A DNA stretch of 64,000 nt, taken from NCBI GenBank assembly GCA_964016885.1, contig OZ024741.1, positions 172,670,001 through 172,734,000 on the forward strand, in the 5' to 3' direction. Positions 3,992 to 13,989 of the stretch are shown one piece after another. Within the stretch, counting starts at the first letter, position 1, and every line of letters begins with the position of its first letter. This DNA is from Eledone cirrhosa (lineage: Eukaryota). The notes beneath the pieces are model-generated. The model saw only the letters and a program-made list of their open reading frames with translations, made no database searches and was not told the DNA's origin. Both the position numbers and the translations under genes were made by a program.

Positions 3992-4207
3992 ATTTCTTTA
4001 TTTACCATAAAGGCATAAAAAGAAGGGACAAATACAAAGGGGGAGTTTACATAAAATCGAGTAAAAAGGGTATAAAATGAAATTAATCGAAAACAACCTC
4101 AAAAGGGAGGGCACGTGATGGGGGTTGCACACACCCCCGAAAAAGTGTGCAATCCTTTGCCCGGGGAGCACATGGAGAAGGTGCTCCCCTCTCCTTCACT
4201 TCTTTAC

Positions 4208-7200
4208 CTACAGGATGGTATACAGAGAAGGCCCATTTACACGAGCCATTCTCGCCACTATCACGCACCTTTCATAAAACTGTCTGTGGCCAAGCACCTC
4301 TCTCTCCATTCTTATCCTTCTTCCGAAGTGATATCGGAAGAAGTAGACCAGACTATGGCCAGAAAGGAAGTTGCCTGACCCCAGACCTTTCAATCGTGTC
4401 CACCAAACAACCTCTTTCAACATGGCTATTACGCACAGAAAAACCGCCTTTGCTTCCTTTGTGAAGCGGGGAGGCGGCTTGATTGTCATCACGGACTCGG
4501 CGGTCAATCGAATCGGCGCCACCCGCGACAGCAGTCGTTCAGCGTAGCCCCACAGATCAGCCACGCCCGGACATTGCACCAATGCGTGCGCAACGGTTTC
4601 TTCGTGACGCACGCATCTAGGGCAAATCTTTTTCGAGGGATCCCTGCCCGGGCGCCCGTGTCTGTAGAGCCTCTCTCGAACGGGTAGAGCCCCCGGTAGC
4701 ACTGCCAGGCTAGTGACATCTGGAAGTTGTCCATTGGTCCCGGGCCGAAAGTCCTACCGAACAGGCTGGCCAGTTCGTCTTCTTCCATGTCCAGCGACTC
4801 TCCAAGGGTGTCATCGCCCCTGCTAGCCACCAGCCCTCTATAGAATGATGAGGTGGATTCTCCACCGATGGCCTGGCCCGCTTGCCAGAGAGTCCTGAGC
4901 GCCTGGGCACACTCAGTGTGCCAGTCTCCCAGTTTTCCGGATCTTTGCTTGACCCAGGACTGCAACTCCGTGAGCGAGACGAGTCTCGGAAAGGCTCGTT
5001 TCACGAACGGAGCCCACACCGGTTAACCAGTGAGGAATACCTGTAGGTGCCGTAGCCTTAATGCGTGCCTACGCATCATCAACCACGGCATCCCCAGCCC
5101 TCCTTTCGAAGGTTGTTGGCAGCAGATGGATCTTCTCACCATAGGAGGGCGCTTCTTCCAAAGAAATTGGAAGAGCATGCGTTCCATGGTGGTGAGTGTT
5201 TCCTTAGGGCAAGGCACGACAGTCAGGCGGTAGTAAGTGAAGGGCGCTATGTAAATGTTCGCCACCTCCGCCCGACCTTTTAGGGACAGCTTACACTTGG
5301 CCCATTTCTGGGTTAGTGCAAACACCTTGTTCGTAACCTCGTCCAAATTCTTTTCCACCTGGAGGTCCGGTCCAAACCAGACCCCAAGCAACTTCACCGG
5401 GCCCTCCGTCCAGTGTCCGACGACACCGTCGGGAGGCATCGGTCTGCCTCTCCACGTTCCGAGTTGCAGCCCGATGGATTTTTCCCGGTTCAGTTTCGCT
5501 CCTGACAACCTTTCGTAATCCTCCAGTAAGGTACCGATCGCCTCGATTTCCGAGTCGGTCGATACCATTACTGTTACGTCATCGGCGTAGGCCGACACCG
5601 CTTTGCTCAATCCTGGTTCCAGGGGGATACCCTGCAACAACTCCAACTTCCTCAGTAAAGGCTCGAGAGTCAATACGTACAGAAGGGAGGAGAGAGGGCA
5701 CCCCTGTCGAATGGATCGTGTGATTTCGAACGGCTTCGAAAGGTAGCCGTTCACCTTGATCCTAGAACAGATGTGGTTGCTATGTAAGGCAGTGATCCAG
5801 CCTCTGAAAACAGGACCGAACCCAGCCGCCGCTAGCACCGCATCCAGGTAACCATGGTCGACTCTATCGAAAGCCTTAGACTGATCCAAGTTGATCAGGG
5901 CCCCACCGAAGCCGGGTTTGTTGCCAACCCTCTCTATGATGTATCGCATGAGGTGGAGGTTATCGTGAATGGACCTGGATGGGATAGCACATGTCTGTGC
6001 ATCTGCCACCAGGCTACCCACGACAAGCGCCAACCTCTTTGCTAACACCTTGGCCAAACTCTTTAACTCTGTGTTTAGCAGGGTTATGGGCCGAAAATTA
6101 TTTATATTATCCCCCTTGTTCTCGTCCTTCTTCACCAGCGAGACTACGCCCTTGGCTACAGAACAAGAAATTCTCCCGTTCTGCTGCCAATTGCAGTAGA
6201 CCGCTTCGAGGAGTTCGGAGAAGAATACCGGCATTGCTAAATAAAGTTCGTAAGGTATACCATCGAGACCTGGAGATTTGCGTCTGCTGCATTGGCTCAG
6301 CGCATCCCCGATCTCATCAGCCGAGATTGGTCCCTCGCAGGACTCTGCCTCTTCGCTCGAGAGACGCGGCAGGCCGTCGAGGTATGGACCGAAATCCACG
6401 TCCCCGCCCGGACCCTCGCCTCCCCCGAATAATCGGGCAAAGTTCCTTTGAAAGGCCTCGCACATCTGCTTAGGCTCCCGGATCACCCGTCCATCCACGT
6501 CTTGCAACGACCGGATGGTGGATCGATTTCCACTCTTAGCTTCTGTCACGCGGGCCCAGCCAACGGCTTTGGCCCCCTCATTACCTAGAGCACGTATTTT
6601 ACTTCGAATGACGCAGCCTTCGTGCTTTGCATCGAAAAACTGGTTCAAGGCCGTCCTCGATGCCAGCACTCTGGCCACATCTTCGCTCTTGATTGCTTCT
6701 TCTAATTTACCTGTTAATTCTTTCTCGTTTCTATTCCTATCGGCAGCTAACATCTTGCTATAACTTATTGATTCTGTTCTAATCTCTCTTTTGAGAGATG
6801 CCCACCATCGGTTGTTGACGATTGCACCCGTCAACCTCTCCTTAACTAATCTGCTAATGCGGTTTCTGTAAGTCTCTTTTGCCGGTAAAGACAAATTAAG
6901 TTTCCAGTAACCGGGAACCTGTTTATGTGTTTTCTCGAGATTGACTACGCAGGTCACTAATTTGTGATCCGTATAGCCAACCGTGCGCATTTCTGGACAG
7001 CTTAATATGTCCCTATCCTTACTTCTAACTAAGAATCTATCTAAGTACGATCTAGATTGACCACTGTGGTTTCTCCAAGTCCAGGTAGGCACAGTTGGAA
7101 AATCTAGTCGATATCTATCGACCAAGTTAAAACGGTCGAGTAACCCCTTGAGGCTGTTACACCCCACTCTATTAGGACATGCTCCTGCATAGTCCCAACG

Positions 7201-12900: not shown

Positions 12901-13989
12901 AGGTCACTAACTTGTGGTCTGAATAGCCAACCATGCGCATTTTTGGACAACTTAAACAGTCCTTATCCTTAATTCTAACTAAGAACCTATCTAGGTACGA
13001 CCTAGATGATCCGCTACGATTTGCCCAAGTCCAGGTTGGCGCAGTCGGAAAATCTAGTCGATATCTATCGGCCAGGTCAAATCGACCGATTAACCCTTTG
13101 AGGCTATTACACCCCTCTCTATCGGGACAGGCCCCTACGTAGTCCCAGCGTGCATCTAGGATACCATTCCAGTCCCCCACTAATAGCAAGGAGCGGGACG
13201 TCCCTAGAAAAGTCTCCAGACGATGGAAGAAGTCCGGCCGCATTGACCCGAAAGGGCCGTAGGCGGCTACCAACCTAAACGCTCCGCCTTTACCACTGCC
13301 AAGGTCCAGAACCACTAGTCGACCCTCCGGGTCCAAATGTACCATATGTGTTGCGAAACCCAGATGTTTTTGCAGCAGAACGACAACTCCACCCCCACCT
13401 CCGGGCTGACAGAGAGATGCGTGCATCTCAAAGTCATCAAAGGTGGGGGTCAGCTGTCGCACGTAGCTGATCCGGGCCTCGCAAATAACCATCACATCTA
13501 TACGTTGTGACCTGAGGTCATTTAGAAGCATTGCCTGCTTCCAAGTTGAGCCCAGGCCACGCGCATTTAAACAGCCTACTCTTAGCATAGCCATGTTGGT
13601 GGTGAAGAGAAAAGGCACTTACCTCTCTGCGTCCCGGGTATCGGGCTGCACAATTTCCATTAGGGTGGGGGATGGGTTGTTGAGTGGGGTGGTGGTTTGT
13701 GGAAGTGTAGGGGCATCAGTGTGTTGTGTGGTTGGGGAGCTTGGAGTTGTGTGGGTGTTTTGGGAGGGGGAGGGGTAGTTTTTTAGGAGGACGCGGTTAA
13801 TGGGCCCGACGCAGGGGGGACCCGCGTCCTCTTTAAAATTGTTTTTTAAAGTTTTATAGGTGTCCTGTGGGGCCTTAATCATTTTGAGGTGGGGGAAATC
13901 CCCTGCCTGGGTGAAGTTAGGCCCTTGTGTTTTTATTAGATTGTTGTTGTACACAATGTTTAACAGTTTTTTGTTTCTTGTGTTTATGT
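9902..13989 (-). mobile_element. Tx1 copy C, 5'-truncated within ORF1
   Basis: ORF1 C-terminus (to 13619). ORF2 in three pieces 11894-13618, 11190-11942 and 10167-11177 with APE, YADD and CCHC motifs. 3' UTR with AATAAA. Confidence 0.93.

Follow-up and report, generated by a model that had tools for sequence, protein, structure and literature searches.

The window examined here, a 64,000-nucleotide stretch of the Eledone cirrhosa genome (contig OZ024741.1, positions 172,670,001 to 172,734,000), holds copies of a long interspersed nuclear element (LINE) with two open reading frames, called ORF1 and ORF2, arranged in tandem and head to tail with runs of (TATC)n between them. Intact copies elsewhere in the genome comprise an ORF1 of 592–636 amino acids, a spacer of 24–41 nt, an ORF2 of 1139–1145 amino acids, and a 3′ untranslated region (UTR) of ~260 nt with an AATAAA signal. 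Long terminal repeats (LTRs) are absent; the element ends in its 3′ UTR, AATAAA, and a repeat tail. ORF1 has a zinc knuckle whose CCHC pattern is visible in the sequence, with a weak Pfam match (E 0.051), and ORF2 combines an APE-type endonuclease, a reverse transcriptase, and a C-terminal zinc finger: PF03372, PF00078, and PF13966 were matched in intact ORF2s of two families, PF13966 falling below the cut-off in one. The preference for (TATC)n as a target is seen at the ends of the window copies and at many 5′ junctions. By architecture and target, rather than by tree placement among named Tx1 elements, the family is Tx1-like; its closest homologues share 39–69% identity, and none bears an element name. 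We are concerned with the boundary between the two frames, where a strong splice donor covers or adjoins the end of ORF1, and with the possibility that the whole of ORF2 is an optional intron.

Searches covered the 3.0-Gb assembly and sampled 16 subfamily types, each through one representative, to which a seventeenth (M) was added later. ORF2 DNA identity ranges from 67 to 97% among 15 aligned representatives, G4 having been added after the alignment. A pattern made of the donor, 18 to 45 arbitrary bases, and CAACATG had 8,196 genome matches against 186 for the reversed control, and all scored copies were identical over 120 amino acids (150/150). To judge from these sequences, the LINE family is large, young, and still highly active. 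At least two ORF2 5′ variants follow C-type ORF1 ends (L001–L030), some of them 99–100% like window copy D, which points to recombination between subfamilies.

The first-pass annotation of the window had read consensus 5′ splice sites across the ORF1 ends of copies B, C, and E on the minus strand, and a decayed one in copy A; all four were confirmed (Table 1; a slash marks the exon–intron boundary). Scored against the U1 consensus, the donor AG/GTRRGT is the top match among 238–290 GT sites in 6/6 elements (with a tie in G), and it is present in 17/17 subfamily types sampled (the 16 and M) as GTAAGT, GTAGGT, or GTGAGT, all compatible with U1. Sampling relied partly on donor-containing patterns, so that conservation is best judged from the families reached otherwise: G and H, found via their 3′ ends, have AG/GTAAGT in 15/16 and 8/9 junctions, respectively, and the donor is present in 5/5 junctions of G4, found by protein search, and in 8/10 of M, found via its 3′ end. 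In a separate observation, the bases that follow the ORF2 TAG are themselves donor-like at 4208, 10167, and 36149 (AG/GTAAAG, AG/GTGAGG, and AG/GTAGGT); in G, it is this post-ORF2-stop site that ties with the ORF1 donor as the best U1 match.

The position of the donor relative to the codons differs among families. Phase 2, in which it lies over an Arg-stop, is seen in A, B, C, D, E, I, I2, J, and K; in phase 1 (G, G2, G3, G4, H, H2, and H3) ORF1 reads G-K-stop across it; and in phase 0 (M) ORF1 continues through it to a stop 12 codons further on. Long open frames (640–668 codons in G4) underlie the phase given for A, B, C, E, G, G4, and M; for the H types and several minor types it comes from frames that are few or short, together with peptide similarity. 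Since the donor is kept across three ORF1 frames, it is kept as an RNA sequence and not as codons, and this comparison of sequences supports selection on the donor as RNA. Distant LINEs do not share the feature as a rule. A first metagenome scan gave no hits and a later one found 34 distant loci with best-segment identities of 25–49%; AG/GTRAGT is absent from the ORF1 stop in all 16 loci read across the ORF1/ORF2 boundary, out of 18 examined. For a distant relative (P0003, 41% identity), none of the 40 matches scored in the genome was a close copy, and the six best were G-type copies.

Could the motifs be a coincidence, a G followed by a stop codon resembling a donor and a TAG stop resembling an acceptor? 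In the phase-2 families the resemblance holds by construction, and the synonymous sites among these lineages are unsaturated, 123 of 305 being nearly invariant. Against this, the motif persists as G-K-stop or in mid-frame while the flanking ORF1 and spacer turn over. Coincidence is largely refuted for the donor, and as an account of both motifs we hold it to be quite improbable.

A second feature, absent from the first-pass annotation, is a predicted long-range helix of 33–63 bp in which the end of ORF1, the donor, and the spacer pair with the beginning of the 3′ UTR. Own pairings ranked first of 720 permutations against swapped ones in six families, and none of 100,000 was as good in 15 families. 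With long arms, the own partner was in the top three for 14/15 families, most often outranked by a close sister; short arms put it at ranks 6–12 in C, D, I2, J, and K, and with them, in B and C, a segment elsewhere in the element scored better than the helix partner. Shuffled arms reached the observed energy in 0/500 trials in five families and 8/500 in B. The helix appears in the 3.8-kb minimum-free-energy fold of 3/3 families tried (C, E, and A), gains 12–40 kcal/mol over separate folding, and covers 4–7 of the 8 donor bases, the latter two in 16/16 families; in 6/6, the sense duplex exceeds the antisense one in stability. Sister families carry matched changes, for instance ACCTGCC in the G spacer with GGTAGGT, AGCTTGCC in G2 with GGCTAGCT, and CCAGC in G4 with GCTGG, and the helix predicted for M is near-perfect over ~45 bp. 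The bases of the 3′ UTR arm can instead form local hairpins, and two mutually exclusive folds are therefore predicted, one of which would cover the donor.

The helix brings the ORF2 start beside the ORF2 stop and runs to within a few bases of that start, a geometry that would also suit a switch acting mainly on translation: the spacer up to the ORF2 start would be hidden until a ribosome finishing ORF1 opened the helix, so that ORF2 would be coupled to ORF1, and the bases that look like a donor would belong to that element. Subfamily M, which lacks an ORF2 AUG and has its ORF1 UAG overlapping an AUA, is what stop-restart translation would predict. However, neighboring helix bases change together with their partners while the eight donor bases stay U1-like and partly bulged (4–7 of 8 paired), and translational coupling is compatible with optional splicing, so that both could act together. 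As the principal role of the helix we consider translation improbable.

M is a young subfamily (ORF2 99% identical among 10 copies, L346–L357) in which the UAG–AUA overlap falls where the ORF2 AUG is expected (in L351, for example, on the minus strand, with ORF2 beginning at oriented base 2789), and the first methionine of ORF2 is residue 35, or 57 in one copy; the AUG is kept in the other 16/17 families. The arrangement suggests, from sequence, AUG-independent stop-restart translation. The idea that M is non-autonomous was dropped: a poly-G run or its vicinity is where 9/10 copies are broken, 4/10 have no other break, and one copy first breaks at about residue 212.

Our preferred reading is that ORF2 is an optional intron, excised in some transcripts to leave an ORF1-only mRNA, while the donor helix keeps the rest unspliced; we place it a shade under an even chance, and splicing of the whole of ORF2 as such at about an even balance. 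In this scheme, U1 would bind the donor while the RNA is being transcribed. Were the emerging 3′ UTR to fold into local hairpins, the donor would stay open and be spliced to the acceptor just made; were it to pair over the donor, 3.4 kb back, a full-length RNA would result, with the ORF2 start and stop juxtaposed. The purpose would be ORF1 protein in excess of reverse transcriptase (RT), as with copia gag, and the spliced RNA, lacking ORF2, would be copied only in trans. That the 3′ UTR works as such a two-state switch and that the choice of acceptor co-evolved with ORF1 frame shifts is a single joint reading, which we put forward tentatively and rate somewhat lower.

The acceptor of this proposed intron is the weaker partner. 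The first-pass annotation had every ORF2 ending in CT(G/A)TAG, which holds for the window (4208, 10167, 14630, 36149, and 37086 on the minus strand; 21024 on the plus strand) but not for the E family, whose ORF2 ends in CTGTAA in 6/6 paired copies. It had further proposed that joining donor to acceptor recreates the ORF1 stop. It gave the joins correctly as AGG TAA for B, AGG TGA for C, and AGG TGG for D; exact restoration occurs in B, C, and J only, with quick closure in nearly every family and no acceptor in E. Its statement that G and H restore no stop came from applying a single frame, whereas in phase 1 these joins read G-R-stop and V-stop.

When the first YAG or AAG after the pyrimidine stretch at the ORF2 end is taken as the acceptor, the join meets an ORF1 stop within one codon in the family’s own phase in 15/15 families; in a wrong frame, a stop falls within two codons in 4/15 (the other non-zero phase) and 1/15 (phase 0). 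Joins at the TAG only give a stop within two codons in 10/15 families in their own phase and 5/15 in the other phase, and with GAG allowed as an acceptor the count is 12/16. As background, 319 of 3,664 3′ UTR positions have a stop within three codons. Which site closes the frame differs with phase. An AG at −7, out of frame for phase 1, is lacking in 7/7 phase-1 families, where TAA, TAG, or TGA supplies the stop at offset 2 or 5. The same AG is present in 5/5 phase-2 families that keep the TAG and have no stop after it; every phase-2 family shows either the −7 AG, or a stop at offset 1, or the two together, and B, without the −7 AG, has G TAA. In D, A, I, and K, which have no stop after the ORF2 TAG, the AG 7 nt upstream joins ORF1 in frame to the last codon and stop of ORF2 (in copy D it is GAG in the window and AAG or CAG in other D copies). 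Copy C offers two candidates, a CAG ending at 10174 (the first YAG; join R-L-stop) and the TAG ending at 10167 (join R-stop). In the RT tree, the outgroup adjoins the E/H branch (support 0.83), a position that would suit phase 1 being the older state, with E losing its TAG once it had changed phase.

Several observations weigh against an acceptor here. Its AG does follow a moderate pyrimidine tract, as the first-pass annotation had it, but by pyrimidine content it ranks only 2–38 among 169–193 YAG/AAG sites, and the E family has no alternative to its CTGTAA other than a GAG at −13, so that the motif conservation anticipated across subfamilies holds for the donor and fails for the acceptor in E. 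No YTRAY-type branch motif was found at the acceptor in the six families scanned. The tract lies in Pro, Ser, Leu, and Tyr codons, and its pyrimidines at synonymous sites show no conservation beyond the background (112 of 305 sites). The first-YAG/AAG rule was chosen post hoc, and the families are related, with few independent events. A written prediction that M would be in phase 2 failed; M is in phase 0, its donor 12 codons before the ORF1 stop, and its join needs three codons to reach a stop that it shares with B. An old family chosen for another such blind prediction had decayed too far for scoring. Finally, the bases following the ORF2 stop pair with the CAAC preceding the AUG, so that the helix alone may fix some of the ‘restored’ stops. 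On balance, the sequences are suggestive of an acceptor at the ORF2 end, and the earlier splicing interpretation is partly supported.

Splicing should leave ORF1-only copies, as the first-pass annotation had predicted. None was found in any family searched: ten pattern searches genome-wide, each combining the exon end with ‘not the intron’ and covering the C/D, B, G, A/I/J, G2/G4, H, E, and M joins, returned no ORF2-less copy with ORF1 joined to the ORF2 end or the 3′ UTR, the patterns being exact at the donor join so that copies mutated in the motif are missed. Some searches had no hits; in the others, every locus read was an unspliced copy, a small indel, a chimera, an inversion, or unrelated DNA (8/8 each for C/D, B, and G; 30 read of 33 for A/I/J; 5/5 for G2/G4; 12/12 for H; and 30/30 for E). 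Acceptor-side searches had ORF1 upstream in 0/8 and in 0/44 read of 70 hits. Likewise, no half-L1 (HAL1)-type ORF1 plus 3′ end without ORF2 occurs at the exact donor join, imprecise deletions not having been searched. These negatives count against splicing; because an ORF2-less RNA would need RT in trans, they lower the claim and do not refute it. RT supplied in trans is described as inefficient for L1 (PMC5860796). Contigs of four sequencing runs of unrecorded kind, compared with an intact C copy, had no donor-to-ORF2-end joint among the 15 best-supported of 255 joints, and the smallest run alone gave two joints, neither at the donor; since contigs can demonstrate presence but not absence, both results were counted neither way. 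Many A/I-type insertions, 5′-truncated so as to start near the acceptor, carry just the 3′ UTR and ~10 nt of ORF2 and abut (TATC)n on that side (Table 1); they may come from overlap with the TATC target and were counted as no evidence.

The missing copies fit a further explanation, in which the donor binds U1 without being spliced to the ORF2 end: U1 would guard or hold the unfinished transcript, and the helix would displace it upon synthesis of the 3′ UTR, releasing only complete RNAs. A strong, invariant donor beside a weak acceptor that is missing in E, and a helix that covers the donor and requires the 3′ UTR, agree with it, and U1 binding is described as blocking early termination in the EVD copia element (PMC5580714). 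It leaves unexplained why the joined frame follows each family’s ORF1 phase, and ORF2 has only 0–1 AATAAA in 16/16 families, little canonical signal to guard against. We judge it unlikely, although a serious competitor to optional excision of ORF2.

Fusion of the two frames would result from a very short intron that starts at the donor and stops at an AG near the beginning of ORF2. The spacer is pyrimidine-rich, and I-type spacers end in TTTTCAG in frame with ORF2. Such an intron would measure about 28–52 nt, as counted on the sequences; its fused RNA would keep ORF2 and be copied in cis, and no fused copy came from patterns able to catch one; and the ORF2 AUG is retained in nearly every family, while the first ORF2 codons of M have no in-frame AG. 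We regard this intron as very improbable indeed. The I-type spacers (L155–L163) end in TTTTAACTTTTCAG followed by ACCAAC-AUG, in frame with ORF1, and have the look of a strong acceptor 28–38 nt past the donor.

A search that fixed one junction end also uncovered a chimeric subfamily, in which I/J-type ORF1 ends exactly at its donor AG and C-type DNA follows after a CAG (16/30 loci read; Table 1). This CAG lies 23 nt before the C donor, mean identity is 93%, and in the chimera the C donor comes to lie in phase 1 while ORF1 runs on across the ORF2 start. On its sequence, the chimera may be a spliced retrocopy, but the junction also fits a template switch at the 2-nt AG overlap. It is also a possible route for ORF1 frame shifts.

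Table 1. Element copies, donors, and predicted helix arms in the window, with two sets of genomic loci.
Feature	Position	Strand	Remarks
Copy B	3991..9817	−	Full-length but broken Tx1-like LINE: 5′ UTR, ORF1, 33-nt spacer, ORF2, 3′ UTR; flanked by (TATC)n
B donor AG/GTAGGT over ORF1 Arg-stop	7676..7683	−	Phase 2; first intron base 7681; same in 11/11 B junctions
B ORF2 (endonuclease, RT, zinc finger)	4208..7644	−	Broken at 5023; candidate intron 7681–4208, acceptor at TAG stop
B 5′ helix arm (ORF1 end, donor, spacer)	7648..7716	−	52 predicted pairs with 4208–4142
B 3′ helix arm (3′ UTR start)	4142..4208	−	Local hairpins as alternative predicted fold
B AATAAA signal	3997..4002	−	Directly before (TATC)n tail
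Copy C	9902..13990	−	5′-truncated; very young subfamily (copies elsewhere 97–99% identical)
C donor AG/GTAAGT	13617..13624	−	Phase 2; first intron base 13622; 1,477 exact 20-mer matches in genome
C ORF2	10167..13594	−	Frameshifted; two candidate acceptors
C 5′ helix arm	13598..13657	−	50 predicted pairs with 10167–10098; also in ORF1-end-to-3′-UTR fold of intact C copy
C 3′ helix arm	10098..10167	−	Predicted pairing
Copy D	14493..17044	−	5′-truncated; ORF2 end 14630; no stop after TAG
Copy A decayed donor AG/ATCAGT	1844..1851	−	First base after the boundary at 1849; A family has AG/GTAAGT in 17/21 junctions
Copy E donor AG/GTAAGT	33636..33643	−	Phase 2; G at 33641; E family ORF2 ends in TAA, without YAG acceptor
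G-type 3′ fragment	36149..36764	−	Family donor in phase 1; join G-R-stop
H-type 3′ fragment	37086..38403	−	Family donor in phase 1; join V-stop
H-type 3′ fragment	20699..21024	+	3′ end only
Chimeric loci	L217, L218, L220, L223, L225, L226, L228, L231–L233, L236, L238–L240, L242, L244		I/J-type ORF1 end joined to C-type DNA
3′-UTR-plus-10-nt insertions	L305, L306, L312, L314, L316, L318, L323, L325, L332, L334–L342		A/I-type

Other repeats share the window. An intact 1,130-amino-acid single-ORF RT element of another LINE type lies at 44231–47623 (minus strand), with a match to RVT_1, a weak one to zf-RVT, and, by eye, a C-terminal restriction-like endonuclease motif; it is presumably R4/Dong-like. 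A broken relative at 65% identity occupies ~56400–58100 (minus strand). The ORF at 52217–53287 (plus strand, 356 amino acids) has no Pfam match, and we take its end to resemble the GIY-YIG endonuclease of Penelope-like elements. A satellite of 171 copies of a 43-bp unit (96% identity) fills 22062–29385, and G-rich arrays of 33-bp and 114-bp units adjoin it at 17690–20018.

The excess of ORF1 over ORF2 protein in LINEs is usually put down to weak reinitiation. If the proposal is true, a selected, helix-gated ORF2 intron would be a second route to that excess, converging on copia, and the host would gain a single switch for silencing RT. Even if no splicing occurs, a covarying helix that clamps the ORF2 start to its stop and hides a U1 site would be a concrete, mutable element. 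A literature search, mostly of titles and abstracts with few subscription papers and without supplements, turned up no report of an ORF2 intron or a donor-covering helix in a LINE.

The nearest known systems each share some of these features. The Tx1-clade, microsatellite-targeting elements Kibi and Koshi have in common with the present family two ORFs, an ORF2 with endonuclease, RT, and zinc finger, microsatellite insertion, and tandem arrays; here the flanks are (TATC)n, and the part of that report used mentions no donor, ORF2 intron, or long-range helix for them (PMC4494074). In SART1, ORF2 is likewise translated from a bicistronic RNA by stop-restart translation, as has been proposed for L1, and an RNA structure lies just downstream of the stop-start site, whereas the partner strand here is 3.4 kb away in the 3′ UTR (PMC5972666). 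Human L1 provides spliced LINE RNAs, SpORF2 and SpIREs, whose spliced forms can be retrocopied, those needing protein in trans at low levels; in contrast, the L1 forms lose the 5′ UTR or ORF1 and are called dead ends, while here ORF2 would be removed, apparently under selection (PMC2896524, PMC5860796). HAL1, an ORF1-only element, corresponds to the product predicted here, ORF1 plus the 3′ end (PMC5753468), although no ORF1-only copies were found in this family. A further parallel is the splicing of gag in Drosophila copia, whose subgenomic RNA arises by removal of an intron spanning all of POL, and in Arabidopsis EVD: there too a donor closes the structural gene and its U1 site is the key element, and excision of the enzyme gene, with a stop in or close to the junction, would be shared as well (PMC5580714). 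Copia and EVD are LTR elements with one gag-pol ORF for which spliced RNAs have been shown (PMC5580714), whereas the present element is a bicistronic LINE whose ORF1 has its own stop and whose donor lies under a predicted helix, and its splicing is proposed from sequence. By analogy, excision of ORF2 would work like copia gag splicing, outside that system.

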